In this document: in pieces, positions 4,505-22,059 of the stretch | Layout: every line of letters starts with the position of its first letter | How positions within the stretch are numbered: position 1 is the first letter of the stretch | DNA from: Nitrospinota bacterium | GTDB lineage: Bacteria > Nitrospinota > Nitrospinia > CAJXCL01 | Assembly: GCA_036011265.1 (NCBI GenBank) | Contig: DASCNB010000011.1 | Location: 1 to 51,758 of the forward strand | Length of the DNA stretch: 51,758 bases | Direction of reading: 5' to 3' | Position numbers and translations under genes: made by a program | Notes under the pieces: model-generated | Database searches by the model: none | Told to the model about the DNA's origin: nothing | The model's input: only the letters and a program-made list of their open reading frames with translations

Positions 4505-4521
4505 TTTTTTTTTGGGGGGGG
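4505..4521. repeat. composite homopolymer tract T9G8
   Basis: Sequence tttttttttgggggggg read directly at 4505-4521, in the intergenic region about 300 nt upstream of the plus-strand SDR gene. A G8 run stands out in this AT-rich DNA. Confidence 0.9.
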
Positions 4522-4817
4522 CATATATCTCTCTTCAACAGGCTGTCAATGAAAGTGCCCCTTTATCTGAGAAAAGAAGGGAGGAATTTATCTGATCGCC
4601 AATGGGTCATAGATTTACTAACACTTTCAATTATACGCCTTTTAATTCCTATTCTTGTATTAATATTAAACCTGTGATAACTTTTCTCTTAAACACCGGC
4701 TTAATATATGTTTTTTACTTTCTTTGGAATAGTGCTATTTCAGCAGGGAAACCAAGATGTCTTAACTTCTTTTCACATTTTTAGTAAAAAAAGCAAACAA
4801 TAGAAAAGGAATATTAT

Positions 4818-5540: not shown

Positions 5541-5562
5541 AGAAATAGCCAGAGGAAATGCT

Positions 5563-7200
5563 GTGTTTAACAAAAAAAATAATTTGGTAATTACAATATC
5601 CTTATTTTGCATAATTCTTTTTAAACGATTGATTTTTTTGAATTTAGGAGTAAATCTTGAGGAAGCCAAAGACCTTGAAGCAATAATTAAAATCACTAAT
5701 GGTGAAGTACTTTACCGGGATTTCTATTATATTTACGGATTTCTGGGTTTATACTTAAATGCAGCAGTATTCAAACTTTTTGGCGTTGCTGACATTCTGA
5801 TTCCGCGTCTAATTGTCTCCCTGTTTTTCGCTTCTTCTGTATTTTTTGCTTACAAGATCGCATTGAGATTTGTATCTCCATTTTGGGCTTTTGTAGCAGT
5901 ACTGCTTGGTTTTTCCGGGCTTGTTACAAGGGAACATACATATGGTCACATTTTTGCGTTTGCCGGTATTATAACGTCTCTATGGGCAGGGCTTTCATAT
6001 ATCAATGAGAGGAACCTCAGGTATCTGATTTTAGCAGGACTGTCGACAGGCATTGCTTTAATAAGTAAACCATTGCCGCAGGGGATTTTAGCAAGTTTTG
6101 CACTAATGAGCTTACTGGTTTACGAATATTTTTTTATAGATAAGAAGTGGAACCCGCTTCCTTATGTGGCTTTTATTTTAAGCCTCCTGATTTTTCCGTC
6201 CTTGGGAGTTTTATATTTTTATTCACAAAACGCGCTTTTATTATTTTTAAAGTCGTTATTTCCCATGTTTAGTGGCGGAGCTTTCCATCCCAGCACTTAT
6301 TTTTATATCCCGTCTATTGTTCCTGATGCTTTTTTTTCTGCAAGAAGTTTAGGAGAACTGAAGGCTATTTTGAACATTTATTTGTATCAAAATTTAAGGT
6401 GGTGGCTGATCTCAATTTTATTTATTATCGGCATTGCATATTCAATTCGTAATTTGTACAGGGACAGACAAAATAGCCATTTTTTATCTGTTTTATTTTT
6501 GAGCAGTTTTTCAATGGTTTTTGAACTTCAGAGAATCCTGATCCCTGGTTTAAACCCTTATGTAAGTCTGTTTCCTACGTTTGTGTTGTTGATTTACTTT
6601 GGAATCAAAATAAATACTTCCCGGCATGCAAAGCAGATGGTCCAAATTATGATCTTTTTATTGCTTTTCCTTTATTTTATATATCCGCCTTTAATTTATT
6701 ATATTAATTATAAAAATAACGGACAACCGCTCCGGTTAAAATATGCAGATAATGTTATCGTAAAGCCTTTTACCTATAATGCATATAGAGAAGCTGTAAG
6801 TTTTATCAAAGAAAAAACGGACGTTGCTGATAAAATAGTTGTCGCGGATTACAATTCTTTCTTTTTCTTATTTAGCGAGAGAGAAAACTTATTTTCAGAG
6901 AATTTTTATTTATTTAGCGTAACAACATTTCATCCACTAGGGAAAAGTTTTTCAATTACTTATAAAAAAAAAATACTCAGAGAAAATGCAATTATTGAAC
7001 GCATTAAGACAGAAAAGCCGGCGCTGGTTTTAATCCCTTCTGATTATCTAACTGCTAATTCCATTGAACAGTCTGTGTTCTTAAAATACATAATCAATAA
7101 TTGGAACAAATGCAAAGAAACAGGCGTCGGGACAAAAAGAACCGCGTTTGATAATAATATAGGTGTTACTATATTTTGTTCATCTGAAAGAAATTTTTAA
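5563..7200 (+). CDS. polytopic GT-C-fold glycosyltransferase-like membrane protein (ArnT/PMT-like) with a C-terminal soluble domain
   Basis: 545 aa with a GTG start. About 11 hydrophobic segments. N-terminal loop GEVLYRDFYYIYGFLG resembles the first periplasmic loop of ArnT/PMT_2 proteins. The last about 170 aa are hydrophilic. Confidence 0.5.
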   Translation: MFNKKNNLVITISLFCIILFKRLIFLNLGVNLEEAKDLEAIIKITNGEVLYRDFYYIYGFLGLYLNAAVFKLFGVADILIPRLIVSLFFASSVFFAYKIALRFVSPFWAFVAVLLGFSGLVTREHTYGHIFAFAGIITSLWAGLSYINERNLRYLILAGLSTGIALISKPLPQGILASFALMSLLVYEYFFIDKKWNPLPYVAFILSLLIFPSLGVLYFYSQNALLLFLKSLFPMFSGGAFHPSTYFYIPSIVPDAFFSARSLGELKAILNIYLYQNLRWWLISILFIIGIAYSIRNLYRDRQNSHFLSVLFLSSFSMVFELQRILIPGLNPYVSLFPTFVLLIYFGIKINTSRHAKQMVQIMIFLLLFLYFIYPPLIYYINYKNNGQPLRLKYADNVIVKPFTYNAYREAVSFIKEKTDVADKIVVADYNSFFFLFSERENLFSENFYLFSVTTFHPLGKSFSITYKKKILRENAIIERIKTEKPALVLIPSDYLTANSIEQSVFLKYIINNWNKCKETGVGTKRTAFDNNIGVTIFCSSERNF

Positions 7201-7275
7201 CGGAGAGTTGCCTGGAGACGTAAAACTTATAGGGTTAAATAAACAACGCAGGGAGACCTTGTTTAAATTGATATT

Positions 7276-8379
7276 CTATGTTTTAGTGCATCTTGCGCAT
7301 CCTGGAAATAATCCCTTTTTCAAGCTTCTTCTAAATTTAATAAATTTTTCTGAATTCCATATATCAAGAAAAGGTTTTTCATTTATGTTTCCTACAGAAT
7401 ACTTAAAAGCCTCGCATGGAACAACATCTCCATTGGGATAAATAAAAGCTCCCCTGTGCACAAAGTAACATTTTCTTGATGTTTTAAATTTACTCGAATA
7501 CCAATCTTTCATTTCTTCTAGACTTAAATCGGGAGTCATGCTAAACCTTCCCTTGTATTCATTAGTAAATTTCTTGATTTTATCAAAATAGATACTTGCT
7601 TTTTCTTTAGGGTCATAAAAATAATTAACTTCGTCTATATGCTCTCCCGGAAATGTTTTATCCATAACCTGTTTATTTATTTTAACATCTTCTTCAGCAA
7701 CATACGTAGGGTGTCCAAACCTTATTAAATCAACTTTTAATTCCTCTCCAAGCTCTACTATTTTCCCTAATTCATCAAGGTTTTCTTCTAAAATTGTAGT
7801 ATGAAGCATGATTTTTGTTTTTCTATTTTTGTACGTGGAGAATTCTTTTATGGCGTTAAGGGTTTTCTCGTAAGCTCCTTTAATGCCGAGGATATCATCA
7901 TGTTTATGCCCAATTCCTTCCATCGCAAAAACGACATAACTCATTTCCACATCTACTATTTCTTTAATCAGTTCAGGCGTAAATAGGGTCCCGTTAGTAA
8001 AAATGCCACACTTCATTCCATAAGCCTTAATCCTTTTGGCAATTTCAATAAAATCTTTTCTGATTGTCGGCTCTCCGCCAAAGAAAGTTATACTCGGCTT
8101 ATAAGGAGAGACTTCCTTTAGCAGCTTATCTATTCCTTCAAAAGTTAAATCATTTTTATCTTTATTCAGCAGGGCTCCCACATTGCACATACTACATTTT
8201 GCATTGCATTTCAATGTTAGAAAAAGAGCAATATTGATCGGAGCATGATTTTTCCCATCACCACGAATATAATAATCGTAAGAAAAAAGAAAAATCTCTT
8301 TTAATGCTCTTAAGTAGGAATAAGCATTAAATTTGGTTATGGCTACATGATGCCTTTCGATCGAAGTTAATATTGACAT
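7276..8379 (-). CDS. radical SAM enzyme with C-terminal SPASM/twitch-like Cys cluster
   Basis: 367 aa. LTLKCNAKCSMCN (CxxxCxxC), FFGGEPT. C-terminal cysteines in GDVVPCEAF and FPGCARCTK. Confidence 0.8.
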   Translation of the reverse strand: MSILTSIERHHVAITKFNAYSYLRALKEIFLFSYDYYIRGDGKNHAPINIALFLTLKCNAKCSMCNVGALLNKDKNDLTFEGIDKLLKEVSPYKPSITFFGGEPTIRKDFIEIAKRIKAYGMKCGIFTNGTLFTPELIKEIVDVEMSYVVFAMEGIGHKHDDILGIKGAYEKTLNAIKEFSTYKNRKTKIMLHTTILEENLDELGKIVELGEELKVDLIRFGHPTYVAEEDVKINKQVMDKTFPGEHIDEVNYFYDPKEKASIYFDKIKKFTNEYKGRFSMTPDLSLEEMKDWYSSKFKTSRKCYFVHRGAFIYPNGDVVPCEAFKYSVGNINEKPFLDIWNSEKFIKFRRSLKKGLFPGCARCTKT

Positions 8380-8388
8380 TTTATTATT

Positions 8389-9816
8389 CTATATTTTTAT
8401 AACTGCCTTAAAACCTCTCCAAAACCTTTTTATATCGACCATGCTTTTGATGGAAAATAGCTGTCTAATCATATAGCTTGGTCTTATATAGAATTCTTTG
8501 TACGCTCTGGATATGGATTTTTTAATATAATCTTCTGTTAGCCCATCAGGAACATAATGAAGTTTGGAACTGCTGGAATTAATTAAGCAAGAGAAACTAC
8601 CAAAATTCTCATGAAGCAGCTTTCCTTCTTTTTTTATGATTTCGTACAATTCATTTCCCGGGTAAACCATTACCGCGTAAAATGCAACAACATCCGTTGA
8701 GAGTTTTTTGGCAAAACTTATGGTATCTTCTATGCTTTGTTTTGTTTCTCCGGGCATTCCTATAATTATCAGTGCCATTGTTTTTATCCCGACTTTTTTA
8801 GACCATTTTATAGCCTGCATACTCTGCTCTAATGTTATGCTCTTTTTTATTCTATCTAAAACGACTTGATTCCCCGATTCAATTCCATAACTGATCATCC
8901 AGCATCCCGCTTTTTTCATTTTATGCAGTAATTCCAGATCGACAGAATCGACTCTTGACGAGCAACTCCATGAAATATCAATTTTTTTGTTAAGAATTTC
9001 ATCACATATCCGCATAACTCTTTTTTTATCAATTGTAAAAAGGTCATCAAAAAATTTAATGTCTTTCACACCATATTCTTTTACCAGGACTTCTATTTCA
9101 TCAACAACGTTGTTAGCAGTCCTTGCTCGAAATTTATTTCCAAATACAGATCTATCGCAGAAAGTACATTTATAAGGACATCCCCTGCTGGTAATCATGT
9201 GCGCGGAAGGAAGTCGCTTATAACCTCCCGGCATTGGAGCATAAAAGTCTAAAGAAGGGAAAAGTTCTCTTGCAGGATAAGGAATTTCGTCAAGATTTTT
9301 TATAGGCAGTTTTCTTTCATTTATTATTACATTTCCATTTTCTCGCCAGACCAAAGACTTAATCTCACTAAATTTTTTCTTCCCGCTTTCAATCGTTTTG
9401 ACGAATTCCAGAAAAGAATATTCTCCTTCTCCTAAAATGCCAAAGTCAAAACAAGCCTCTTCCAAAGTTTTTTCCGGTAAAGAAGTAAAATGCGGACCAC
9501 CGATAACAAACACTGTATCTTCAGGTAAAATTGCTTTTAAATAATTAGCGACTTTGATTGCGTTAGTTATAGTGAGAACAGTTGCCGTAAAGGCCAGAAT
9601 ATCAGGATTAATTTTTTTTAACTTTTCCCCCAAGGCTTCTCTGGATATTTTAAGAGGCACGCAATCTAAAATTTCGACGTTGAATTCATTTTTTTTAAGG
9701 ACAGCGGCAATATATGCTATCCCTAAAGGCATAATGACATTAGAAACCTCTTCCAGGCTTCCAGTTTGTTCTTGCGGTGGATTAACTAGTACTATTTTAG
9801 TTTTTTTATCAGGCAT
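8389..9816 (-). CDS. B12-binding-domain radical SAM enzyme (class B) #1
   Basis: 475 aa. N-terminal Rossmann-like B12 domain (KIVLVNPP...LGIAYIAAVLKK...DILAFTA), then TSRGCPYKCTFCD. Confidence 0.8.
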   Translation of the reverse strand: MPDKKTKIVLVNPPQEQTGSLEEVSNVIMPLGIAYIAAVLKKNEFNVEILDCVPLKISREALGEKLKKINPDILAFTATVLTITNAIKVANYLKAILPEDTVFVIGGPHFTSLPEKTLEEACFDFGILGEGEYSFLEFVKTIESGKKKFSEIKSLVWRENGNVIINERKLPIKNLDEIPYPARELFPSLDFYAPMPGGYKRLPSAHMITSRGCPYKCTFCDRSVFGNKFRARTANNVVDEIEVLVKEYGVKDIKFFDDLFTIDKKRVMRICDEILNKKIDISWSCSSRVDSVDLELLHKMKKAGCWMISYGIESGNQVVLDRIKKSITLEQSMQAIKWSKKVGIKTMALIIIGMPGETKQSIEDTISFAKKLSTDVVAFYAVMVYPGNELYEIIKKEGKLLHENFGSFSCLINSSSSKLHYVPDGLTEDYIKKSISRAYKEFYIRPSYMIRQLFSIKSMVDIKRFWRGFKAVIKI

Positions 9817-10032
9817 TATTATTTTGTCTTCATTTATGTCAATTCAAGCTTACTCAAAGAACTATATAAGAATAGTAAGAGGTTAAACTAATTAACAAGG
9901 GAGGATCAAAGAACTCATAAAAAAATGATAATTAATAAATGGTAAAACTTCAAGAATTTTATTTTAGCAATAACCGATTTCAAAGACGCTGGAACATCAC
10001 ATTTGCAATTGAGAATTACTTAATAAATGATA

Positions 10033-11154
10033 TTATTGTAATGAATTCTCGACAGCTTTACAGATAAATTCAATATTTTCGTTATTTAATTCAGGGAAAA
10101 TTGGAAGAGATAAAATTTCGCCCGCACATTTTTCTGCGAGGGGAAAATCTCCTTTTTTATAATTCAAGTTTTTGTACGCTTTTTGAAAGTGAACAGGTTT
10201 TGGATAGTGCACACTTGTTACGACGCTATTTTCCAACAATTCTTTAATTTTCTTTCTTTTTTGGGTTTTTATCACATATAAATGATAAACATGCTTAGAA
10301 AATTCCTTTTCGACTGGAGTAGTTACTTCTGTATGCTTAAGCAGTTTATTATAAAGTTTTGCGTGTTTCCGCCTTTTATTATTCCACTGATCAAGGTACC
10401 TTAATTTAACACCCAACACCGCAGCTTGCAATTCATCAAGCCTGCTGTTAAACCCACATATTTTATTGTGATATTTTTTTTCTTCTCCGTAGTTTCTCAA
10501 CATTATTAATGTTTGAGCAATTTGCTCGTTATTTGTTGTAATCATTCCTCCATCACCATAAGCTCCCATGTTCTTTGTTGGATAAAAACTAAAGCACCCT
10601 GCGTCTCCTAAAGAACCAACCTTTTTGCCCTTGTATTCAGCGCCGTGTGCCTGGCAAGCGTCTTCTATAACTTTCAAATCGTATTTTCGAGCAATCTCTA
10701 TTATAGGATCCATATCCGCAGGCTGCCCATAGAGATGAACAGGAATCACTATTTTAATCTTCTTCGAGATTTTTTTTTTTAAAAATTCTTCTAATCCACA
10801 GGCAGACATTGTGAACGTTTCCGGATCAATATCTACAAAAACCGGTTTCGCATTAGCAGAGTTAATGGCAGCAATCGTTGGTACAGCAGTATTAGGAACG
10901 GTCACAATTTCATCACCTGGTTTAACGCCAGAGGCAAGCAAAGATAAATGTATTGCTTCTGTGCCTGAACCTACTCCAACGCCGTATTTTGCTCCACAAT
11001 ATTTTGCGAAGTCATCTTCAAAAACCTTCAATTCATTTCCTAAAACAAAAACACCACTATTTAAAACTCTAAAAATAGCCTGTTCTATTTCCCCTCTTAA
11101 ATTGTTGAATTGTTTGGTTAAATCAATGAAAGGAATCTTATTCATAGTTACCAA
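10033..11154 (-). CDS. DegT/DnrJ/EryC1/StrS-family PLP-dependent sugar aminotransferase (ArnB-like)
   Basis: 373 aa. [17 protein letters not shown], and the PLP-lysine context [16 protein letters not shown]. The true start may be the MNKIPF Met at 11145. Confidence 0.85.
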
Positions 11155-12149
11155 TAATGCTGTTTAAATTTTTTATAATAATTTATGGACTCTTTTAAGC
11201 CTTCCTCAAGTCTTATTTTGGGTTTCCACCCCACAGTATTTTTTATTTTACTAATATCAGAAAAAAAATTTCCCGGTTCCTGTGCGGCTCTTTCAGTCGA
11301 GAACGGAGAAAGTTCCCATGATCCAATACCTGCTAGATCAATAATTAATTTAGCTAACTCAAGGAAGCTGGAAGGTTTATCTATTCCAACGTTAAACACT
11401 TCTCCATAAGCTTCTTCGCATACAGCACACATTATAATTGCATCTACGGCATCATCCACGTAAAGAAAATCTCTAAGAATAGAACCGTCTCCAAACACTT
11501 TAATTACTTGATTATCTAAAGCCTGGCGTATAAACCAGTTTGCGACACCAAACCGACTATGTTTCATCTGAGCCCTTTTCCCATAAGTATTAGTTAACCT
11601 GAGCGTCATAGACCGAATTCCAAGATTATCATTATAAATTTTAAATAGTCTTTGTGCAGTTAAACTCGTCAATTCATAAACACCTTTAGGGTTTATAGGC
11701 GCATCTTCATTAACGGGGAGCTTTGTCGCCGTCCCATATTCACCCCGTGTTCCGGTATAGATCAATTTTGTATTTTTATTATATTTTTTACACGCTTCCA
11801 GGAGTACAACGGAACCTCTGACATTTATATCTATATCCGGGAATGGATTTGTGAGACTTAAAACATGGTCATTTTGACCTGCCAGATGAAAAATATAATC
11901 TTTATTTCTAACAATGTAATGCATACTGTTTTCATCTCTTATATCGCTATAATTAACATTAACTTTATCTTTAATAGATTCGATATTAAACGAGTTCCCC
12001 CCGAGACCGTCAATCATTGCATCCAATAATGTAACTTTAGCGCCTAATTCAACCAGCCTAATCGCAAGGTTGCTTCCTATAAAACCTAAGCCGCCAGTAA
12101 TAAGAACTTCTTTATTTTTAAAAAAATATGAGTTAATTAAATTATTCAT
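11148..12149 (-). CDS. extended-SDR NAD-dependent sugar epimerase/dehydratase-like protein with an atypical active-site motif
   Basis: 333 aa. [12 protein letters not shown] Rossmann motif. At the expected YxxxK position the sequence reads [11 protein letters not shown] (Y-x3-S), which I re-read from the DNA. Confidence 0.7.
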
Positions 12150-13111
12150 TTTTTATTCTTGTCTTGATGTACTTCACGAATAATAAATTGAGGAGTTTGA
12201 TTACTGCTTAAATAAAGATGTCCAAGATATTCCCCTATAAAGCCTAAAATAAGAAGCTGCACACCAGAAAAAATCAATATAGCTATAGCCATAGACGGCC
12301 AGCCAAGTGGTATGTTTGGAATTAAAAACAGTTTTTCAATAACCACAACAATACTTAAAATAACTCCTAACAGGCTAAAAAATAAGCCGAGCAAGGAAGC
12401 AATTCTTAATGGAATTATTGAAAAATTCAATAACATATTGAGCCACAATCTAAGCATTTTTTTTAATGTATAACCGGATTTACCTGCTTTTCTTTCCGAG
12501 TGACGGACTTCTATTTTCCCTATATTTCTGGAGCATCTCAATGCTAAACCATCAATATAGGGAAAAGGTCCTCTATATTTGATAATTTCTTGAACAACGA
12601 AACGACTGAGACATTTAAAACTAGAGAGGTAAAGACCTTTAGGTTTGTCTAACATAAAATCAGCTATCCAGTTATTAAACATGCTTACCATATTTCTATA
12701 CCAGGAATGTTTTTTTCTTTTATAGTAGGAATAGACAATATCATACCCATTTTCTGAAGCTTCGTTTACAAGTTTAATTACCTCTTCAGGGGGATTTTGA
12801 AAATCATCGTCTATGATAACCACATAATCTCCATTCGCATGATTGAGCCCTGCCATTACAGCATTGTGTTCTCCAAAGTTTTTTGAAAGATTAACATAGG
12901 TAACAATAGAGCTATATCTTGAATAAAGGTTCAGACAAACACTGTGGCTATTATCACTGCTATCATCATTGATCAGCACAATTTGAACATTTAGATCATT
13001 CAATATAGTTACCAGTTTTTCCACTAACTTGTCGATAGTATCTTCGCTGTTATAAACAGGAATAACTATTGAAATAAGCATAATAGAGACCTTTATAAAA
13101 ATATCGTTCAA
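12146..13111 (-). CDS. GT2 polyprenyl-phosphate glycosyltransferase (ArnC/GtrB-like) with two C-terminal TM helices
   Basis: 321 aa. IVIPVYNSEDTI, LINDDSSDNS, IIDDDFQNPPEE. C-terminal hydrophobic helices LLNFSIIPLRIASLLGLFFSLLGVIL and MAIAILIFSGVQLLILGFIGEYLG. The likely start is the Met at 13081. Confidence 0.75.
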   Translation of the reverse strand: MNDIFIKVSIMLISIVIPVYNSEDTIDKLVEKLVTILNDLNVQIVLINDDSSDNSHSVCLNLYSRYSSIVTYVNLSKNFGEHNAVMAGLNHANGDYVVIIDDDFQNPPEEVIKLVNEASENGYDIVYSYYKRKKHSWYRNMVSMFNNWIADFMLDKPKGLYLSSFKCLSRFVVQEIIKYRGPFPYIDGLALRCSRNIGKIEVRHSERKAGKSGYTLKKMLRLWLNMLLNFSIIPLRIASLLGLFFSLLGVILSIVVVIEKLFLIPNIPLGWPSMAIAILIFSGVQLLILGFIGEYLGHLYLSSNQTPQFIIREVHQDKNKK

Positions 13112-13311
13112 TAATTAACAAATGTACTGCAATCTCTCTTTTCTGATGCATTGCCTTGAGACGCTAACAAAGTTTAAATGTCCATAGATTCCCGATCAAG
13201 TTAGAAATGGCAACTTTATGCCTGAAATGGTAACTCTCTATTTCTTGTCATCCCGTATGCTTTTTATCATTCTCTCAAAAGCAGCAGCCTAACTTGCTTT
13301 CAGTCAGATTT

Positions 13312-14829
13312 TCACGAAAATTGTTTGGTAAACTCATCAATTCGCGACTCCTTATTCAATAATTTCCATACAAGACTCCAACAATATTTTAAAGTATTCC
13401 TATCTATTTTAGGGTTATTAAACATAGATCCTTTTGACCAACCCATATCATCCCAGTTCCATGAATTAGAAAGTTGGCCATTAGCTATGCATTCATCGTA
13501 AAGAGCGGATCCAGGAAAGGGTTGAACCATAAAAAATTGGCACGCAATCATGCCCGCATCTATTTGCTTTTTAGCCAGCATAAAAGTGTTAGTTAGTTCA
13601 TCAGCCTCTTCGTCCGGATAGCCTATCATAAAATTACCGTCAGCAACTATTCCAATTTTATTTAATTTCCTTATTAAGTCTAAGGTGTCACATCTTTCTA
13701 TGTCCCACTTTCTCCGCGAGTATTTGTCAATAATTCTTTGCGTTCCTGATTCAAAAGGCAGGGATATTTTTCTAAACCCTGCCTCGTAAAGGGCATGTAT
13801 TAATTCCTCATCGACAACATACTTCCCATTCTTTCGCTTGAATAGATTTATAATGTTTACTCCGTTTACGTCCGCCAATTTGAAGGAATAGTTATTCAGT
13901 ATTTTCAAGATATTAAATACTCTTTTCTTGTTTGTCAAAAAGGAGTCATCATTAATATAAAGATAATTAACACCAATATCTTTTAGTTTAACAAATTCAT
14001 TTTTTATTCGTTCAACTGAATGAACTCTAAAAGAACCTATTTTGCCAGCCTCACCTCCCTGTTCATTTGATATATGGCAGTAGTGACATTTAAATGCACA
14101 TCCTCTTGATGTAAACATGCTGGCATACTTTACTAAGCTATCATTTTTCATCCATCCTTCCCTGCCTCCCCAAACTCTGCCTATTTCCCAGTATTTTTGA
14201 TTCGGTAATTTTTCCCATGACGGCATAGGAATTTTATCAAGGCTAGAGATAACTTCATTTTCTGGATTAACAATGATTTTGTTATTATTTTTAAAAGCGA
14301 TTCCCGATATCTCAGAAAGAGGAGGATTTTCTGAATGAAGAAAGTTTGCAAACATCACAATAGCTCTTTCCCCTTCAGAGAGAAAAATGAAGTCAAATCC
14401 ATTTTCAAAAAAATGCTCTTTGAGGGTTCTTGCATTGCATCCACCAGCAATAAGTATTTTCTCCGGAAAATTATTTTTAACCATATTGCTTATTTCAAAA
14501 CATCTTGAAGTCTGCTGTGTAAATATTGATGTTATTGCAATTACATCAAAATTACTTACCTCTTCTATAATTCTGCTCTGGGACATTCCTATTCTAGACA
14601 ATAAAGGAGAAATCTTTTTTTTTTGATAAAAGGTATCCTCCAACCTGTCGTCAGGCGTTCCAACACTCATATCTAGGATTTGTGAGTGGAAACCCGCATT
14701 AGTCAACGCAGCATCCAGATATGCCAGAGCAAGGCTGCCATCGGGTCTTATCATCTCCTCAGTTCTAAATTGTAATGGAGGCAACACCAACAAAAACTTA
14801 GGATTTTTAATTTTAAATTTCTTATTCAT
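13312..14829 (-). CDS. B12-binding-domain radical SAM enzyme (class B) #2
   Basis: 505 aa. N-terminal B12-like domain (FLLVLPP...LALAYLDAALTNAGF...DVIAITS), then TSRGCAFKCHYCH. Confidence 0.8.
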   Translation of the reverse strand: MNKKFKIKNPKFLLVLPPLQFRTEEMIRPDGSLALAYLDAALTNAGFHSQILDMSVGTPDDRLEDTFYQKKKISPLLSRIGMSQSRIIEEVSNFDVIAITSIFTQQTSRCFEISNMVKNNFPEKILIAGGCNARTLKEHFFENGFDFIFLSEGERAIVMFANFLHSENPPLSEISGIAFKNNNKIIVNPENEVISSLDKIPMPSWEKLPNQKYWEIGRVWGGREGWMKNDSLVKYASMFTSRGCAFKCHYCHISNEQGGEAGKIGSFRVHSVERIKNEFVKLKDIGVNYLYINDDSFLTNKKRVFNILKILNNYSFKLADVNGVNIINLFKRKNGKYVVDEELIHALYEAGFRKISLPFESGTQRIIDKYSRRKWDIERCDTLDLIRKLNKIGIVADGNFMIGYPDEEADELTNTFMLAKKQIDAGMIACQFFMVQPFPGSALYDECIANGQLSNSWNWDDMGWSKGSMFNNPKIDRNTLKYCWSLVWKLLNKESRIDEFTKQFS

Positions 14830-14857
14830 GGTATTTTTATTGTGAATTAACTTTCCT

Positions 14858-15640
14858 TTATTTTTTAAATTGTGCAGATAAGCTTATATATTTTTTTTTT
14901 GAAACCGCAAAAAAAGCTTCCGCATATTGAAATGGCTGACCTGATACAATCGCCCTATATCGATTTAGCCCTCTTGCTAAATCTATTAAATCAGTTTCAT
15001 TTGTTTGTGATTCATGGCATTTTATGGCTGAAATTTTCCTTTCCATAAATGGAGTTATATCAACAATGTAATTAGGGATAAGAGTCGACCACAATTCATA
15101 ACAACAACATAAAAAATCCCCATTATATTGATTGGCTGCAAGGGCAAGAATTTTTGCTGTGGCCCTATGGTCAGAATGGTTTTCCATAAAAAAAGGAGTA
15201 AAAACCATGTCCGGTTTTATTTCATTTAAGCGAGAAAGGACAAAATTTACAGCATTTTTGTCAGGCTTTAAACGAAAATCATGATAACCAAGAAAATGAC
15301 TTTTTTTAATCCCAAGTTTTTCACTCCCCTTCAAGGCTTCATTTCGTCTTGTTGTAGATATCTCGTCCGACTCAACAGCACCGCTTTTCTTACCATTTGT
15401 AAGAAAGATTGTTTCACCATAATACCCTCTTTCTTTAAGAACAAACAAAGTTCCTCCACAACCGAGTACATCATCGTCCGGATGGGGCGCAACGACCAAC
15501 ACCTTTTTAACGTCATCAAGATTTAGAGGGGAAGGTGTTGTGGAACTCAGGGATCTAAGAGTGCTGTAATAAGAACCAATGATGCCATCTCTTTTAATTC
15601 GATAAAGATTAATGAAAAGATTATATATTGATGTCTTCAA
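14858..15640 (-). CDS. PIG-L/LmbE-family N-deacetylase
   Basis: 260 aa. VVAPHPDDDVLGCGG zinc-site motif and downstream HSDH. Confidence 0.8.
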   Translation of the reverse strand: MKTSIYNLFINLYRIKRDGIIGSYYSTLRSLSSTTPSPLNLDDVKKVLVVAPHPDDDVLGCGGTLFVLKERGYYGETIFLTNGKKSGAVESDEISTTRRNEALKGSEKLGIKKSHFLGYHDFRLKPDKNAVNFVLSRLNEIKPDMVFTPFFMENHSDHRATAKILALAANQYNGDFLCCCYELWSTLIPNYIVDITPFMERKISAIKCHESQTNETDLIDLARGLNRYRAIVSGQPFQYAEAFFAVSKKKYISLSAQFKK

Positions 15641-15867
15641 TTATTCGATAACTCGGAAATAATTTCAATTGCGCTTTTTATACTTAGCATGCTCGTAATT
15701 TCATCCATGGACATGCTAACTTTGAACTCTTCTTCAATCGCGGAAACTAAACTAATATGAGCCAGCGAGTCCCACTCTGGTAGGTCATCCATCGATGTTT
15801 CTACCGTAATTTTTTCCTTTTTTACGTCAAGTACAGAAGAAAAAAGATCGATTATTTTTTCAGTCAT
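15637..15867 (-). CDS. acyl carrier protein #1
   Basis: 76 aa, acidic, with phosphopantetheine-site pattern EWDSLAHISLVSAIEEEF. 4-nt overlaps on both sides. Confidence 0.8.
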   Translation of the reverse strand: MTEKIIDLFSSVLDVKKEKITVETSMDDLPEWDSLAHISLVSAIEEEFKVSMSMDEITSMLSIKSAIEIISELSNN

Positions 15868-18119
15868 ATTTTGTCAATCTCAATAAATTTCATGCTTTTA
15901 GGTTCGTAATCAGAAACCCCAATGCTGTAAAGCTTGGCGTCATTTTCAGTGCCCGCCGGACTAAAACCAAAGTCATTATAAAAAGATTTTACTATAGAAT
16001 TTTTCCGTGTACGAATATACCTCCCCCAGACTTCCCGTACTCCGTTTTTCGTTGCTTGCCCTATAATGTAGTCAAGAAAAAAATCTTCTAACTTCCTCCC
16101 CAGTACGCGACAACTCATAAGAAATGTGTCTAGATACCAGCAATTATCTTCTTTCTTATTTATAATGACCCCTACTATTCCGATATCACCAAAAATATCT
16201 TTTACTTTCAATCCATACACGTCTGATGAGGATGCCTCGGCAAGACATCTAAGCTCTCCCTCAGAGTACCGTTTTGTCGTTAAATTAAACTGATTTGTTT
16301 TATTAATCAGTTGCGTGATTCTTGGCAATGTAAATTTATCCGCTTGAAATATATGAGCCTTCATTTTAAGTGTTTCAAGGTATTCTTCAAGAGTTTGAGT
16401 GCTCTCCTTCAGATATTTCCGTTTAATCTCTCCCATGTACATTTTGCCACGTTTTTTGTCTTCTTCCGTTAAGTAAAGTGTATCGAGATCGTTTAATTTG
16501 TTAAGGACCTCTGTATATCCTGAAGGGTCTTTCGGCATCTCCGGCACGAGTACTTCCGGTAGTTTGTCTCTAATTAATTTTCTCTCGGCAGGATTGTCAT
16601 CTACAAATATAAAACTATCAAGATTTAAGTTGATTTCCTCTGCGATTTCTAACAAATTATCAACTTTGCTTTTCCAGTTAATTTTCACGCATGCGAAGTG
16701 TTCTTCGCGAAGTATCATATCAGGGTGGTCTCGAATCACCTCTATTGCGTCGTCAAAGTTGTTTTTGCTGTTGATTGCAAGGATAATTCCCTTGCTAAAG
16801 TAACTTTTTAACAGCTTTTGAAATTCTACATAGGCATTCCCCGGTGGTTCGATCCCCAGTTTTATATTTTCGAAACCATCTTCTCCGACAATTCCTCCCC
16901 ACAGGGTATTATCCAAATCCAAAACTATACATTTTCTGTTTTTAAATTTTATTGCTTTGACGAATCGCATGTAATCTCTAGCAATAAACGGCATTGCCCG
17001 CGCGGCAATCTCGACTTTAGCCAAAGTTCTTTTTGTTTCATCTGCTGCAAATTCTTTACCAACTTTAGACAAGGTGCGTTCCGTATCAACAATCTTAATT
17101 TTATTCCCATGTTTTCTGCAAAGAGACAAGAGCCTTTTGTTAAGATAGTTAACAACTCTTTCCTGGCTGTTTTTTTCCATCAAATCGTTAATTGAAAAAG
17201 GAGAATAGGTTGGAAGGGTAAAACGGTTAATCAGGATGGTTGCTTTCGAATTGTTTGCATAGAAGGAAATTGATTTATCAAGGGTATCAAACCTATCCCT
17301 TGCAAGTTGCCAGAGTTTCCGAGTCTCTATTTCGCAAAGTTCGTAATACAACTCGCTAAAAAATTGTCTTGTGTGAATAGCTAACAATACAATATCAGGC
17401 TGAAAACCGTAAAGACCACTGTAAAGATCGAGCATTTCCTGATTATACATGTCGTAACCTGCCTTATAAAATTCAGGTTTTATGTTTATTAAACGGCATT
17501 CCAGCTCGAGGTAGATTTCGATTTGGTCAAAAGTAAAGTTTGAAAGTAAAGCAAACTTGATTTTATTTTTATCAGCATTGTCGGTTTTTCGAGATATTAT
17601 TTTTTGCAAGGCATTGCGATAAGCTAAAGGCGAGTTTGTGGAAAGCGTTAGTTTTCTTAAAACATTAACAGCATGCAAGGGTTTTCCATCGAAATCAAAG
17701 GCGTCAAATAACGCGCAATATAGTTCTATGTTATCCTGGAAACGGTAACATCCTTCCTCCAGAATAGAAATCGCATTTTTAGTATCACCTGCCCCATTAA
17801 AAGATTTTCCCAAGAGAGAAAAATACTCAGCGTTATGCTTGAAATCCGCACAGAGACTCTCTAAAAATCTCACTGCTTTTTCATATTTTTTTTCATTAAT
17901 TAAAGTTTTTGCGAGATAAAACACAGCAGTTCGCATTTTACTTTTTATTTCAGGATCACTTACAACTTCATCTGCCAGAAGGGCCATCAAGTTTTTTTCC
18001 GCTTCACTAAAAAGCCCTTTCTCTATCAAATCCTCGATAGTCAAAAGAATTGTAAAGGAAGAAATCTTTTGTTTTGTTTTAACAGTGAGGTTGGTATCTT
18101 GAGGTAAAATATCTTTCAC
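15864..18119 (-). CDS. FkbH-like HAD-IIIC phosphatase/glyceryl-ACP loading protein with an N-terminal TPR-like region and a C-terminal GNAT-like domain
   Basis: 751 aa. HAD motif I VLDLDNTLWGG, FVDDNP. The C-terminal FLMSCRVLGRKLEDFFL region is typical of FkbH-family proteins. The first about 190 aa are helical repeats. Confidence 0.7.
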   Translation of the reverse strand: MKDILPQDTNLTVKTKQKISSFTILLTIEDLIEKGLFSEAEKNLMALLADEVVSDPEIKSKMRTAVFYLAKTLINEKKYEKAVRFLESLCADFKHNAEYFSLLGKSFNGAGDTKNAISILEEGCYRFQDNIELYCALFDAFDFDGKPLHAVNVLRKLTLSTNSPLAYRNALQKIISRKTDNADKNKIKFALLSNFTFDQIEIYLELECRLINIKPEFYKAGYDMYNQEMLDLYSGLYGFQPDIVLLAIHTRQFFSELYYELCEIETRKLWQLARDRFDTLDKSISFYANNSKATILINRFTLPTYSPFSINDLMEKNSQERVVNYLNKRLLSLCRKHGNKIKIVDTERTLSKVGKEFAADETKRTLAKVEIAARAMPFIARDYMRFVKAIKFKNRKCIVLDLDNTLWGGIVGEDGFENIKLGIEPPGNAYVEFQKLLKSYFSKGIILAINSKNNFDDAIEVIRDHPDMILREEHFACVKINWKSKVDNLLEIAEEINLNLDSFIFVDDNPAERKLIRDKLPEVLVPEMPKDPSGYTEVLNKLNDLDTLYLTEEDKKRGKMYMGEIKRKYLKESTQTLEEYLETLKMKAHIFQADKFTLPRITQLINKTNQFNLTTKRYSEGELRCLAEASSSDVYGLKVKDIFGDIGIVGVIINKKEDNCWYLDTFLMSCRVLGRKLEDFFLDYIIGQATKNGVREVWGRYIRTRKNSIVKSFYNDFGFSPAGTENDAKLYSIGVSDYEPKSMKFIEIDKI

Positions 18120-18136
18120 AAAAAACTATCCTTTTT

Positions 18137-18889
18137 CTACATCATAATCATACCTCCACATACAGGTAAATTAATACCTGTAATGTGGTTTGCGGAATCA
18201 GAAGCTAAAAATAATACAGAATTTGCCACGTCCTCAGTAGTGGTATTTTTTTTCAAAGGAGTTTGTTGAGCAAACATCTTCTTCATTCGTTCCGGAATGT
18301 GAGAAGTAAAATCGGTTTCCGTCAATCCCGGTGACACCATATTCACAGTCACACCATGTGATGCAAGATCCACTGCCAAGCTTTTGGAGAGCCCTATCAT
18401 TGCGGTTTTTGCCGTAACATAATGTCCCATTTTTTGCGGAGGAAGCCCCACTGAATACTGACTAACAATGTTAATTATTCTACCAGCTTTCTTTTCCACC
18501 ATTCCCGGCGCAAATGCTTTACTGCAATAAAATGTGCCTTTGACAGCAGTATCTATCTGTTTTTTTAGGTCCTCCCAGTTCAAGTCTAAAATAAATTTTG
18601 CCTCTATGGATGAAGACGCATTATTAACAAGGATATCAATACCTCCAAATCGTTTTTTTATGTCCTCTGCCATTTCGTTTACGTTTTCTTCATTTGCAAC
18701 ATCTGCCTTGAAAAGAATACCTTCGTTCCCCAATTCCTGTATTTTTCCTAAAGTTTCATTCGCGGCAGCCTCATTTTGACAATAATTGACGGCTATCCGG
18801 CAACCATTTTCTGCCAGTTTAAGTGCAATTGCCGCCCCTATGCCACGACTTGACCCTGTAACCAGAGCCGCTTTATTCTTTAATAACAT
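18137..18889 (-). CDS. FabG-like 3-oxoacyl-ACP reductase (SDR)
   Basis: 250 aa. VTGSSRGIGAAIA, NNAS, S...YVTAK. Confidence 0.8.
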   Translation of the reverse strand: MLLKNKAALVTGSSRGIGAAIALKLAENGCRIAVNYCQNEAAANETLGKIQELGNEGILFKADVANEENVNEMAEDIKKRFGGIDILVNNASSSIEAKFILDLNWEDLKKQIDTAVKGTFYCSKAFAPGMVEKKAGRIINIVSQYSVGLPPQKMGHYVTAKTAMIGLSKSLAVDLASHGVTVNMVSPGLTETDFTSHIPERMKKMFAQQTPLKKNTTTEDVANSVLFLASDSANHITGINLPVCGGMIMM

Positions 18890-18897
18890 TTAATCTT

Positions 18898-19320
18898 CTA
18901 TGTATTTGAGTTTTCTATTCCCGTCATAACCATTGCATTTCCGTCGATCAATAATATCTCATCTTTTTTGACGGACATTTTTAGAGTAAGGATTTTCTGT
19001 GCTTCCTGCTTTTTAATTATTTCTCCAGAAACTTCCACAGTGTCTCCCACAAAAACTGGTTTTCTGAAGTTAAGCTCCTGTGTTAAATAGAGCGCTCCTT
19101 CTCCAGGTATGTGCATACCCACAATAGTAGAAAAAAAAGAAGCCAAAAGCATCCCATGACAAACAGGTCGTCCGAACTTTGTATCAGACGCAAAAATTTC
19201 ATCATGGTGTATTGGGTTACGGTCTCCCGTAACTCTCATAAATTCTTCAACTTTATCTTTTGTAACTGTAACTTCGAATTTATGCTTCTGCCCAACCTCA
19301 AACTCATCAAATTTACCCAT
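18898..19320 (-). CDS. MaoC-like (R)-specific hydratase/dehydratase (hot-dog fold)
   Basis: 140 aa. GDRNPIHHDEIFA....GRPVCHGML. Confidence 0.8.
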   Translation of the reverse strand: MGKFDEFEVGQKHKFEVTVTKDKVEEFMRVTGDRNPIHHDEIFASDTKFGRPVCHGMLLASFFSTIVGMHIPGEGALYLTQELNFRKPVFVGDTVEVSGEIIKKQEAQKILTLKMSVKKDEILLIDGNAMVMTGIENSNT

Positions 19321-19480
19321 TGTACAAACTTTCTTTCAATTATTCGGATATATGATATTTGTTCGAGGGTTGCGAGATAAAAAGAATTAATTTTAACACA
19401 TCATAAAGCATTCATAATTATAAATGTATTTTATAATACTATTATTCCCACAGCCACTATTAAAAATAAATGAGAGGAAT

Positions 19481-20032
19481 TTACCTTTTAATAAATCTCA
19501 ACTCTCGACTTTTTGACACTGCAATAGTAAATTCTGAAATATCTTGAGATATAATTGCACCGGCACCAATCACCACTCCTTCTCCAATTTTAACTCCAGG
19601 TAATATTATGCAATTTGCCCCTATCCAGACGTCTTTTCCAATAAAAATATCTTTTTCCTTTTCAGGTTGCTCTGTATAAGGTATTTTTTTATAAAATGAG
19701 TGATTCGACGATATAATAACCGTATTTTGACCAATACTTACATTTTTACTAATAACGATTTTTGAATTCTCTGAAGCCCATATGCTACAATTCGAATCAA
19801 CGACTAAACCGTCCATTAAGGTAATATTTTTCCCGTAACGAAAAGATACTGTAGGGTGAATCTCCAAGTCATCCCCTTTAGTTAGCTCCTTAAGAGGGAT
19901 ACAATGTTCATACATATAGTAAAGCTGTTTACGATATATCTCTTTATAAAAGATCGGAGAACAAAGGTTGCGAATAATTCTGAATAATTTTCTTAACATT
20001 CGCTTGTCCTTAACTGATAAATCTTCTTCCAC
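19481..20032 (-). CDS. hexapeptide-repeat (LbH) acyl/acetyltransferase
   Basis: 183 aa. Tandem hexapeptides IGKDVWIGANCIILPGVKIGEGVVIGAGAII. Confidence 0.75.
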   Translation of the reverse strand: MEEDLSVKDKRMLRKLFRIIRNLCSPIFYKEIYRKQLYYMYEHCIPLKELTKGDDLEIHPTVSFRYGKNITLMDGLVVDSNCSIWASENSKIVISKNVSIGQNTVIISSNHSFYKKIPYTEQPEKEKDIFIGKDVWIGANCIILPGVKIGEGVVIGAGAIISQDISEFTIAVSKSRELRFIKR

Positions 20033-21086
20033 TACTAATACGGAGATTAGAGATATTATAATAGAGCCTTAAATACTGCCAGCCCACATGCAAATCACAG
20101 ACCCTGCAAATTCCATTTTTTCTTCCATTTCTGCTTTTAAACTCTCTTCTTGCTTTTGACAAAACAGTACCTTGCCAAACTTCTTTGATTTTTTCCTTTT
20201 TCAAATCTCCCACAACAACATTCGCAAAAATATCCGTACAGCAAAGTACTACCTTTCCATCCCAATTAATAACCATCCATTTCCAGAGCTGATGACAAGG
20301 TGCCTGGTTTCGAAGATTATAATCTTTATATGCCTTATGAGGGTAAGAATCAATTTCTTCTGACAAAAAGGATTTTTTATCAAATAATCCTCCCCAGTTG
20401 GATAGACTGTCCATAGAAGATATAGGGTTAAGCTCTACAGTACAATTTGTATGAAACAGTTCCTTAAAAAGGGGATTATTTCGAATCGATTCTTCGTTAG
20501 TGGAAGTTTTTATTCTGATATTAATTTCAATAGGTCTTTTTGCCTTATCATTCATTTGAAACAATCTGATAAGATTTTTCCATGTTTTTTCAAAAGAAAC
20601 GCCCTTTAGTTCCTCAAATAATTTTTTATCCAGTTCATCCAAACTGATTTCCGTATCAACCTTTTGATCAATTAACTTTTGAGCAATCTTTTCATTCAAT
20701 GCAAAACCATTTGTAATCAATTCCAGCTTATAAATAGATGGAAATTTACGGATAAAATCTATTTTCTTTAAAAAGACTGGATCCAGTAACGGCTCTCCAA
20801 AAGTTCCAAACCGGACGATTCCTCCAACTTTGGCATAGTCTTCTATAATTTTTTCAAACAGCTCAGCACTCATTATCCCTTTTTCAGCCGGTATCTTATC
20901 ATTCGGACACCAAGAACATTTGGCATTGCAAAGGTTGGTATTGTCAATAATGAGAGCGCCAGGGAATTTTTCAAGCAGAGTAGCCTGAGGAAGAACGAGA
21001 AAATCAAAAAAAGCTGATTCGTATATTGTTCTCCTAATGTTATTGATAAAAATAAAAAAAGAACTTCGCTTAATCGAATCAAACAT
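20010..21086 (-). CDS. radical SAM enzyme with C-terminal SPASM/twitch-like Cys cluster #2
   Basis: 358 aa. NLCNAKCSWCPN (CxxxCxxC), FGEPLL. C-terminal cysteines in APCHQLW, VVLCCTDIF and GICRVCD. Confidence 0.75.
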   Translation of the reverse strand: MFDSIKRSSFFIFINNIRRTIYESAFFDFLVLPQATLLEKFPGALIIDNTNLCNAKCSWCPNDKIPAEKGIMSAELFEKIIEDYAKVGGIVRFGTFGEPLLDPVFLKKIDFIRKFPSIYKLELITNGFALNEKIAQKLIDQKVDTEISLDELDKKLFEELKGVSFEKTWKNLIRLFQMNDKAKRPIEINIRIKTSTNEESIRNNPLFKELFHTNCTVELNPISSMDSLSNWGGLFDKKSFLSEEIDSYPHKAYKDYNLRNQAPCHQLWKWMVINWDGKVVLCCTDIFANVVVGDLKKEKIKEVWQGTVLSKARREFKSRNGRKNGICRVCDLHVGWQYLRLYYNISNLRISSGRRFIS

Positions 21087-21096
21087 GATTTAGAGT

Positions 21097-22059
21097 CTAT
21101 TCTATCCGATGTTCCACAAAACATCCAGCTATAAGTCGTAAGTATAGCTTGATTTTATTTCTGTATTTTTCTCTTTGCTTAAGATTAAAAAAGTAAGTTA
21201 GCAACCAATAAAACTCGATTAGAATATTTTTGCATATATCTAATGCTTTCAGTATTAATAAGTCAATACTTCCATAATGTTTTTTATAAAAGTAATATTT
21301 GTTTCGCTGCAAATTTAGAGTTAAAAGGTCTTTAAAATCCTGGCTGCTTTTCAAAACGCTATAGCTGTGGTGGTGGTATATTGTTGCCTCGGCAAGATAG
21401 TAAAAAGAGTAGTGGTTTTTTTTAATCCTGTAACATAAATCCGCGTCTTCCATGTAAGCATATCCAAAGTTTTCATCCATCGCACCAACTTTTTCCAAAA
21501 CTTCCTTTTTTATCATTAAACATCCACCACCAGGCCATAGATCATCCTTAAGTTCCCGTGACACAGAGTAGTCCCACTGGGAAACGTCATATTTATAAAA
21601 TATTTTTGAATGTGCAATATGTTTACTTATGGAAAGAATCTCATAAATCATCCCGGGCAAGTTCGGAAACCGGCAATAGGCTGATTGAGATCTACCATCA
21701 GGATATAAAACCTTGCAAGTCATTGCTCCAATATGGTTTTGTTTCTTCATTAAATCTACCATCCTGGCAAAAGTATTTTCATTAATATAGGTATCACTAT
21801 TGAGCAAAAGAACATTTTTCCCCTGTGATATTTTTATACCCTGGTTTACGGCTTTGGAAAAACCTAAGTTTTTTTTGTTTTTAATTAATTTTACTGATGG
21901 AAATGACGATTCTATTACCTTTACGCTGTCATCAGTGGAACCATTGTCCACAACAATGAGTTCATCCTGAATGCCGTGCGTAAACTTCATAATAGATTCC
22001 AGACACTTTTTCAAAAGGCTGCAAGTATTCCAGTTTACTATTATAATTGATAAGTCCAT
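21097..22059 (-). CDS. GT2-family glycosyltransferase
   Basis: 320 aa. SIIIVNWNTCSLLKKCLES, VVDNGSTDDS, LLNSDTY, MEDADLCYR. Confidence 0.8.
   Translation of the reverse strand: MDLSIIIVNWNTCSLLKKCLESIMKFTHGIQDELIVVDNGSTDDSVKVIESSFPSVKLIKNKKNLGFSKAVNQGIKISQGKNVLLLNSDTYINENTFARMVDLMKKQNHIGAMTCKVLYPDGRSQSAYCRFPNLPGMIYEILSISKHIAHSKIFYKYDVSQWDYSVSRELKDDLWPGGGCLMIKKEVLEKVGAMDENFGYAYMEDADLCYRIKKNHYSFYYLAEATIYHHHSYSVLKSSQDFKDLLTLNLQRNKYYFYKKHYGSIDLLILKALDICKNILIEFYWLLTYFFNLKQREKYRNKIKLYLRLIAGCFVEHRIE

Follow-up and report, generated by a model that had tools for sequence, protein, structure and literature searches.

Among the closest described systems to the one reported here is that of OzmB, an FkbH-type enzyme of 366 residues that passes through phosphoglyceryl-S-enzyme and glyceryl-S-enzyme forms to yield a glyceryl-acyl carrier protein, or glyceryl-ACP (PMC9057759). 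In the FR901464 and lankacidin pathways, bifunctional dehydratase-ketoreductase (DH-KR) proteins convert glyceryl-S-ACP to lactyl-S-ACP (He et al. 2014, as summarized in PMC4765723). Described here is a computational analysis of an FkbH gene and its neighbors on the 51.8-kb contig C11 of an uncultured marine Nitrospinota bacterium. This contig, taken as a whole, is referred to as the window, and the genome from which it derives amounts to 3.0 Mb in 289 contigs with a G+C content of 38% and an estimated completeness of ∼94%. Over a 400-residue stretch, the RpoC of this genome (contig C88) shares no more than 68% identity with the named genomes matched, which include MAGs of Nitrospirota, Thermodesulfobacteriota, and Rokubacteria, and the genome may belong to a poorly sampled lineage. 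The FkbH gene belongs to a conserved block of eight genes. On a reading that is favored here tentatively, the block may encode a cytoplasmic tailoring module in which a C3 hydroxyacyl group (lactyl) is built on an ACP and replaces the N-acetyl group of an N-acetylglucosamine (GlcNAc)-type residue in a surface glycan.

N-Lactyl, N-glyceroyl, and related C3 N-acyl groups are known to occur on surface sugars, namely on pseudaminic acids (Pse) in Psychrobacter, Tannerella, and Campylobacter and on perosamine in Vibrio cholerae O144, and such C3 N-acyl groups influence antigenicity as well as phage and lectin recognition. Specific examples include the Pse5(R-lactyl)7Ac of Psychrobacter marincola and the N-lactyl perosamine polymer of V. 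cholerae O144 (PMC7281560). The genetic basis for Pse5Am7Gra, the N-glyceroyl Pse of Tannerella, was described in 2017 as a major open challenge (PMC5378307), and no later assignment was found in the searchable literature. The flagellin glycosylation locus of Campylobacter jejuni contains an FkbH-domain gene, cj1302, which is a pseudogene in strain 12664, a strain without the dimethylglyceric acid-bearing Pse (PMC7099621). Within that locus only cj1295 has been genetically tested (PMC3068675). The remark concerning cj1302 was the single link between FkbH proteins and glycans (polysaccharides, capsules, O-antigens, or nonulosonic acids) found in the searchable literature, where no experimental test of an FkbH-ACP module acylating a sugar was found either. 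An FkbH-ACP system joined to a dehydratase-reductase pair would provide a concrete route from a glycolytic intermediate to these C3 N-acyl groups.

The logic of deacetylation followed by re-acylation is exemplified by LpxC and LpxD in lipid A biosynthesis, and a GT4 glycosyltransferase is combined with a PIG-L-type deacetylase in the pathways for mycothiol, bacillithiol, glycosylphosphatidylinositol (GPI), and butirosin (BtrM/BtrD). LpxD is a left-handed β-helix (LbH) enzyme that employs an acyl-ACP, and the 4-amino-2-hydroxybutyrate side chain of butirosin is an α-hydroxy acid carried on an ACP.

The eight-gene block and its conservation

As can be seen from the map of open reading frames (ORFs), positions 13312 to 22059 of the window constitute a single tightly packed run with all genes on the minus strand. 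The genes of this run, together with a more distant glycosyltransferase gene, are as follows.

21097-22059, minus strand: GT2 glycosyltransferase, 320 residues (Pfam Glycos_transf_2, 87 bits), the first gene of the conserved block
20010-21086, minus strand: radical SAM/SPASM enzyme, 358 residues, BtrN-like (Pfam Radical_SAM and SPASM)
19481-20032, minus strand: LbH (hexapeptide) acyltransferase of the LacA/Maa/WbbJ type (Hexapep, 52 bits)
18898-19320, minus strand: MaoC-type dehydratase, 140 residues (MaoC_dehydratas, 84 bits)
18137-18889, minus strand: FabG-like short-chain dehydrogenase/reductase (SDR), 250 residues (adh_short_C2, 203 bits)
15864-18119, minus strand: FkbH protein, 751 residues, with tetratricopeptide repeat (TPR), FkbH_N, HAD-IIIC, and GNAT-fold regions (TIGR01686, 315 bits)
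15637-15867, minus strand: ACP, 76 residues (PP-binding, 33 bits)
14858-15640, minus strand: PIG-L/LmbE-family de-N-acetylase, 260 residues (PIG-L, PF02585, 93 bits)
13312-14829, minus strand: B12-binding radical SAM enzyme, 505 residues (B12-binding and Radical_SAM)
1692-2828, minus strand: GT4 glycosyltransferase, 378 residues (Glycos_transf_1, 142 bits)

Annotation with hidden Markov models (HMMs) placed the six genes for LbH, MaoC, SDR, FkbH, ACP, and PIG-L on the minus strand exactly where a first-pass annotation of this DNA had put them. The chaining of the FkbH, ACP, and PIG-L genes by 4-nt overlaps, recognized at the same time, is indeed present in the sequence: the ACP gene shares ATGA with the FkbH gene and TTGA with the PIG-L gene. 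No transmembrane-like segments were detected in any protein of the run, and a scan for promoters and terminators returned no more sites than did shuffled sequence.

The conserved unit consists of the genes for GT2, the radical SAM/SPASM enzyme, LbH, MaoC, SDR, TPR-FkbH, ACP, and PIG-L. The same genome has a second copy on contig C99 (L011:1949-11931) with protein identities of 64-90%, and it represents either a co-binned relative or a genuine paralogue. Contigs from Tara Oceans contain the block as well (72-93% identity), as do three Nitrospinota metagenome-assembled genomes, or MAGs (L017, L022, and L089; 31-53% identity), in which the gene order is unlike that in the window. Most of the block (PIG-L, MaoC, SDR, TPR-FkbH, and GT2) is also present on a 7-kb Logan contig (L103), where a small ORF occupies the position of the ACP. 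The GT2 gene accompanies the block in C99, L009, L017, L022, L089, and L103, and is likewise found in FkbH loci of the Nitrosopumilales. Because gene content is kept despite the changed gene order, the comparison indicates that the eight genes form a functional unit. The block had initially been described as one of five genes; its extent is now corrected to eight, namely GT2, the radical SAM/SPASM enzyme, and the six genes from LbH to PIG-L. Both gene conservation and co-occurrence, like the domain identities and intact catalytic motifs presented below, are matters of direct observation.

In the window and in L009/L010, the gene for the B12-radical SAM enzyme comes after that for PIG-L. C99 and the Nitrospinota loci do not share this arrangement, and the gene is an accessory member of the set. 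A GT4 gene accompanies the block in two other copies, being positioned directly after PIG-L on C99 (81% identity) and directly before the radical SAM gene in the Nitrospina locus L089 (42% identity). On C99, both the GT4 gene and a methyltransferase gene directly follow PIG-L. Their homologues in the window (883-2828) are separated from PIG-L by ∼12 kb containing other glycan genes (2829-14857), an arrangement suggestive of an insertion or of an exchange of cassettes.

The FkbH protein and its carrier-protein partners

The FkbH domain model (TIGR01686) matches residues 395 to 720 of the 751-residue protein with a score of 315 bits (cut-off of 146.65), covering model positions 3-320 of 323. It is preceded by an FkbH_N domain at about residues 213 to 385 and, at residues 48 to 122, by matches to TPR models that are slightly under the Pfam cut-offs. 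Within HAD motif I (LDLDNTLWGG), Asp 401 and Asp 403 are invariant both among 16 aligned homologues and among 48. Ser 669, Cys 670, and Arg 671, located in the GNAT-fold half, are invariant in the 48 homologues, a set made up of sequences other than OzmB and FkbH. The identification of the protein as an FkbH enzyme, first made from the sequence letters, has withstood the alignment of its HAD aspartates, and the equally invariant Cys 670 is the putative bearer of the glyceryl thioester.

A model of the FkbH protein was built with AlphaFold2 on the basis of the 48 homologues and compared with the PDB using Foldseek (pLDDT of 89.8 and pTM of 0.82). Residues 13 to 176 of the model form a TPR superhelix that matches those of OGT, SPINDLY, and designed TPR proteins. 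Residues ∼180 to 555 match PDB entry 3SLR with a template modeling (TM) score of 0.89, and the last ∼160 residues adopt a GNAT fold with TM scores of 0.65-0.77 to many acetyltransferases. In a sequence comparison, 3SLR was the only solved relative (E of 2e-52, with residues 177 to 552 aligned). The GNAT-like part, initially regarded as an additional domain, is indeed present, but as one of the two halves that make up the FkbH domain rather than as a separate entity. It contains an RxxGxK motif that, from a reading of the sequence, resembles a pantetheine loop. Because of its family membership the protein is proposed to be a glyceryl-S-ACP synthase, and because OzmB, at 366 residues, acts via phosphoglyceryl-S-enzyme and glyceryl-S-enzyme forms, the GNAT-fold half most plausibly loads the ACP as part of the FkbH domain. 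FkbH_N is an addition seen in the glycan-type proteins, to which the window protein adds the TPR arm. The N-terminal TPR-like extension, suspected from the outset to be uncommon, is in fact absent from the majority of the 120 best homologues, which are 580-630 residues in length. This arm probably docks a partner protein.

To place these genes in a broader context, 86 FkbH loci were sampled from genome collections encompassing many bacterial phyla, the Nitrosopumilales, Asgard lineages, and other archaea. The family itself is large: scoring of candidates yielded more than 4000 homologues, distributed over bacteria and archaea including the Nitrosopumilales and Asgard groups. An alignment was employed as the query for related loci, given that a single-sequence query gave five loci only. 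Neighbors were counted within 6 kb of FkbH. The co-occurrence statistics ignore shared ancestry and derive from a small sample (86 loci), and are offered as support and not as proof. An ACP is encoded beside FkbH in 79 of the 86 loci, and the FkbH-ACP pair is therefore a near-universal core. LbH enzymes were found in 28 loci, MaoC in 24, SDR in 21, CE4 deacetylases in 16, PIG-L in 5, GNAT-type transferases in 14, and AAC(3)-like transferases in 6. No locus combines any two of the three transferase types (LbH, AAC(3)-like, and GNAT-type), and with phylogeny ignored the chance of observing zero overlap is ∼1e-4. A deacetylase of either the PIG-L or the CE4 type is present in 21 of the 86 loci and is enriched in those with LbH (13/28 versus 8/58, P = 0.002, ignoring shared ancestry). 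One FkbH homologue (P0111) is fused to a CE4 domain (PF01522), and a Nitrosopumilales locus encodes a CE4 deacetylase, LbH, FkbH, ACP, MaoC, AcpS, and GT2, with no candidate acyltransferase besides LbH. Within the sample, PIG-L and the radical SAM/SPASM enzyme appear only where FkbH aligns over the TPR arm; for the latter this amounts to 4 of the 86 loci plus the C99 copy. What is new here is the variant with PIG-L, LbH, radical SAM/SPASM, and glycosyltransferases that is tied to the TPR arm, together with the mutually exclusive transferase types and the near-obligate pairing of MaoC with SDR.

In an Aureliella (Planctomycetota) MAG, the ORF at L075:1903-5157 runs past FkbH to a total of 1085 residues and, as read from the printed sequence, appears to hold a stretch resembling an ACP and, C-terminally, a long extension. 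If confirmed, it would be a loader, a carrier, and perhaps a transferase in a single chain.

The ACP of the window contains the WDSL serine motif, and its 33-bit PP-binding score falls under the cut-offs of all housekeeping AcpP models. In the MaoC protein the hydratase-2 motif, GDRNPIH, is intact, as are the TGxxxGIG and S...YxxxK motifs of the SDR with the catalytic serine, tyrosine, and lysine. Because the SDR scores 215 bits against TIGR01830 (FabG), under the cut-off of 297.75, it is by this measure a FabG-like enzyme and not the housekeeping FabG. All but two of the loci with an FkbH-linked SDR have it paired or fused with MaoC. Fusions were observed in at least six loci and, in addition, in a 575-residue protein encoded on contig C26 of the same genome. 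By analogy with the DH-KR proteins, MaoC is proposed to convert glyceryl-ACP to pyruvoyl-ACP, and the SDR is proposed to reduce the latter to lactyl-ACP. The pair would thus predict lactyl, and not glyceroyl, as the final acyl group.

Contig C26 carries a third FkbH gene (567 residues, with no TPR arm) followed by that for the 575-residue MaoC-SDR fusion (L012:3515-6969). The central ∼220 residues of the fusion carry no assignment, and a PriA helicase gene is located further along the contig.

Proposed deacetylation and acyl transfer, and competing explanations

The PIG-L protein scores 93 bits against PF02585 (cut-off of 28) and displays the metal-binding motifs PHPDDD and HSDH. Its closest solved structure is that of an archaeal diacetylchitobiose deacetylase (E of 4e-24), an enzyme that acts on GlcNAc glycosides; the match to BshB has an E of only 4e-5. 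Against the BshB1 and BshB2 models it scores 83 bits (cut-off of 182.5) and 55 bits (cut-off of 195), respectively, and BshC was not found in the 94% complete genome. On the basis of these scores, the closest solved relatives, and the missing BshC, a role in bacillithiol or mycothiol biosynthesis was rejected. The initial proposal, which an enzyme of the mycothiol/bacillithiol type would have contradicted, is in keeping with this, given that the enzyme resembles chitobiose deacetylases and not BshB or MshB. A nonulosonic acid acceptor was considered as well and is less favored for a PIG-L enzyme. No NeuB gene occurs in the window. Two good full-length copies of NeuB are located elsewhere in the genome, on contigs C281 and C72; the organism thus probably makes sialic acid-like sugars, and tailoring genes for these may be located in the window.

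The GT4 enzyme, whose best NCBIfam match is BshA (119 bits versus a cut-off of 274, C-terminal half only), is the probable source of the N-acetylhexosamine residue. The radical SAM/SPASM enzyme has BtrN as its closest solved structure (E of 2e-9, N-terminal part only). BtrN is a radical SAM alcohol dehydrogenase, and the window enzyme perhaps oxidizes a sugar hydroxyl.

Two candidates for the final transferase had been put forward in the first-pass annotation, namely the GNAT-like domain of the FkbH protein and the LbH enzyme. Because the GNAT-fold domain carries the invariant cysteine and is the self-acylating, ACP-loading part in OzmB-type enzymes, the LbH enzyme appears to be the better candidate. 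The mutual exclusion of transferase types beside FkbH lends further support to LbH, and in both L013 and L038 the examined genes include no other acyltransferase candidate. The GNAT-fold domain is less likely to act upon a sugar, as its invariant cysteine and the RxxGxK motif fit OzmB-like loading of the ACP. The best model matches for LbH are LacA, WcaF, WbbJ, and Maa, all under their cut-offs, and with 30 bits against the LpxD model (cut-off of 207) it is not in the LpxA/LpxD families. The histidine of its SSNHSF sequence presumably occupies the LacA catalytic position. Use of an acyl-ACP by LbH is suggested by gene context only.

With its annotated GTG start, the LbH gene has a 23-nt overlap with the radical SAM gene. 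Translation may instead begin at the internal ATG at 19999, which would give a protein of 172 residues; the C99 homologue is also of 172 residues and aligns from that position.

The window contains another carrier-protein module, with an AAC(3)-like N-acyltransferase gene (30757-31584) and a DUF4910/DUF2172 gene (36816-38105). The AAC(3)-like protein shares 28% identity across its full length with the product of a gene in a Methanosarcinales MAG (L023:5696-6490), which lies directly after FkbH-ACP-MaoC-SDR. The two ACP modules of the window would thus use transferase types that substitute for each other elsewhere.

For the pathway that we tentatively prefer, all substrates and products are inferred, as are the sequence in which the steps occur and the assignment of the transferase. 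In the first step, FkbH would take 1,3-bisphosphoglycerate onto Cys 670, the HAD half (Asp 401 and Asp 403) would remove the phosphate, and the glyceryl group would pass to the dedicated ACP. Elimination of the 3-hydroxyl group by MaoC would then provide pyruvoyl-ACP, and reduction of its 2-keto group by the SDR would provide lactyl-ACP. In parallel, GT4 or GT2 would place a GlcNAc-type residue on the acceptor, PIG-L would remove its N-acetyl group, and LbH would deliver the ACP-bound C3 hydroxyacyl group to the amine thus exposed. Further changes to the sugar or the acyl group would be made by the two radical SAM enzymes. That an N-acetyl group is exchanged for a glycerate-derived acyl group by way of an ACP had been suggested from the start. 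The proposal has gained comparative support from the frequency of the ACP, the recurring PIG-L or CE4 deacetylases, and the CE4-FkbH fusion; it differs now in that the final acyl group is refined to lactyl and the unit is larger.

Several observations weigh against this pathway. LbH is akin to acetyl-CoA-dependent O-acetyltransferases (LacA, Maa, and WbbJ) and unlike LpxA/LpxD or NeuD/PglD. No deacetylase is encoded nearby in 15 of the 28 LbH loci. MaoC occurs without SDR in 14 loci, in which pyruvoyl or some other product is possible. The GT4 gene of the window is ∼12 kb from the block, the two radical SAM enzymes and the TPR arm have no explained role, and the co-occurrence statistics are uncorrected for ancestry within a sample of 86 loci. 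Finally, an ester product, or an unrelated O-acetylation by LbH, remains a serious rival.

In the ester alternative, the same module operates, LbH O-acylates a sugar hydroxyl with the C3 acid borne by the ACP, and PIG-L separately leaves a free, positively charged glucosamine. We regard this outcome as unlikely, albeit deserving of attention. The closest solved structures to LbH are those of sugar O-acetyltransferases, specific for galactosides and maltose (E of 1e-15), and the LbH loci without deacetylases represent minimal LbH-FkbH-ACP sets. O-glyceryl esters do occur in polysaccharides such as native gellan. Members of the LbH fold matched in the PDB, however, include both N-acylating and O-acylating enzymes, and the deacetylases are significantly enriched with LbH. 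The coupling of PIG-L translation to that of the ACP through the 4-nt overlap and the fusion of a CE4 domain to FkbH likewise speak against this alternative.

It is similarly unlikely that the N-acyl exchange takes place with a different group, whether glyceroyl, pyruvoyl, or an oxidized species (2-hydroxy-3-oxopropanoyl or hydroxymalonyl), with MaoC and SDR otherwise employed or with remodeling by the radical SAM enzymes. N-Glyceroyl and dimethylglyceroyl sugars are known (PMC5378307, PMC3068675, PMC7099621), and a dehydrogenase oxidizes glyceryl-ACP in the methoxymalonyl pathway (PMC9057759). Both the loci having MaoC but no SDR and the two radical SAM enzymes, for which no role has been assigned, would be accommodated. 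The pairing and fusion of MaoC with SDR, on the other hand, mirror the characterized DH-KR route to lactyl-ACP, and HMM scans revealed neither an acyl-CoA dehydrogenase-like enzyme nor an O-methyltransferase within the eight-gene block.

A more speculative extension, to which we assign a low probability, is that the TPR-FkbH variant forms the core of a self-contained N-(2-hydroxyacyl)-glucosaminide pathway, with GT4, PIG-L, a BtrN-like sugar oxidation, an LbH enzyme recruited to acyl-ACP, and the TPR arm holding the complex together. Improbable, too, is the formation of a small soluble or lipid-anchored glucosamine glycoside according to the logic of mycothiol, bacillithiol, or 2-deoxystreptamine, with an ACP-borne α-hydroxy acid as in butirosin. 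PIG-L follows GT4 in the thiol and aminoglycoside pathways, and BtrD is a PIG-L-family enzyme. The GT4 protein has BshA and MshA as its best family matches, both sub-threshold, BtrN is the closest solved relative of the radical SAM/SPASM enzyme, and all of the proteins are soluble. Resemblance to BshA and to BtrN is, however, weak and confined to parts of the proteins, BshC is missing, and the block lies within an island of ∼50 kb that is rich in glycosyltransferases, including polyprenyl-phosphate GT2 and GT-C enzymes, and encodes a phosphonate pathway and a glycerophosphotransferase-like protein.

That the set serves a polyketide or lipid pathway with a ketosynthase encoded elsewhere is very improbable: characterized FkbH enzymes come only from polyketide synthase pathways and several ketosynthase genes lie on other contigs of the genome, including runs on C129 and C176, but a whole-genome search with PF00109, PF08541, PF00698, and PF00975 revealed no ketosynthase, acyltransferase (PF00698), or thioesterase on C11, C99, or C26, and the identified neighbors in the 86 loci are otherwise glycan enzymes (by clustering, a FabH-like group occurs in 5/86, a ketosynthase query not having been part of the marker screen). 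The lack of these three activities had been noted at first for the immediate surroundings of FkbH and holds for the whole contig; no ketosynthase partner links the set to such a pathway. C129 and C176 each carry several ketosynthase genes in a row, and each could be a multi-ketosynthase lipid or polyketide-like cluster, unlinked to the window.

Comparison with known systems

The protein of known structure most similar to the window FkbH is BF1531 from Bacteroides fragilis (PDB entry 3SLR), a structural genomics fragment with no assigned function. The two have in common the FkbH_N domain and the HAD half. Unlike the window protein, the crystallized fragment is without the cysteine-bearing GNAT-fold half and the TPR arm.

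As in the FkbH/OzmB systems, an FkbH domain composed of a HAD-IIIC half and a GNAT-fold half, the latter bearing Cys 670 in the window protein, is accompanied in the window by a dedicated ACP. In contrast to OzmB, the window protein has ∼390 additional N-terminal residues that comprise the TPR and FkbH_N regions. Whereas the polyketide systems supply synthase partners, the window set has no ketosynthase, acyltransferase, or polyketide synthase partner, and a sugar is the predicted destination of its acyl group. The presence of a dehydratase and a ketoreductase for an ACP-bound C3 unit parallels the DH-KR proteins of the FR901464 and lankacidin pathways, where lactyl-S-ACP is the product according to the summary in PMC4765723. 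There the two activities reside in one protein, whereas the window encodes a stand-alone MaoC hotdog protein and a separate FabG-like SDR.

The C. jejuni locus with cj1302 is likewise a glycan locus that contains an FkbH-domain gene, and the sugar produced there bears a glycerate-derived N-acyl group. The acceptor in that case is a nonulosonic acid, and the partner is of the cj1295 type in place of the PIG-L, LbH, and radical SAM/SPASM enzymes observed here. Additionally, the glyceroyl group is kept and O-methylated in C. jejuni, whereas dehydration and reduction are predicted for the window module.

The proposed sequence of events follows the logic of LpxC/LpxD and of butirosin biosynthesis, in which a new acyl group is put on the amine that a metal-dependent deacetylase has exposed on a previously installed N-acetylhexosamine. 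The window LbH differs from LpxD in belonging to the LacA/Maa class, and the window PIG-L differs from the deacetylases of the thiol pathways in scoring under the BshB model cut-offs. In contrast to the lipid A, thiol, GPI, and butirosin pathways, the acyl donor here would be made by FkbH. To these known systems the variant described here adds an LbH enzyme that falls in the acetyl-CoA class and may use acyl-ACP, a PIG-L enzyme in place of CE4, a BtrN-like radical SAM enzyme, and a TPR arm on FkbH.

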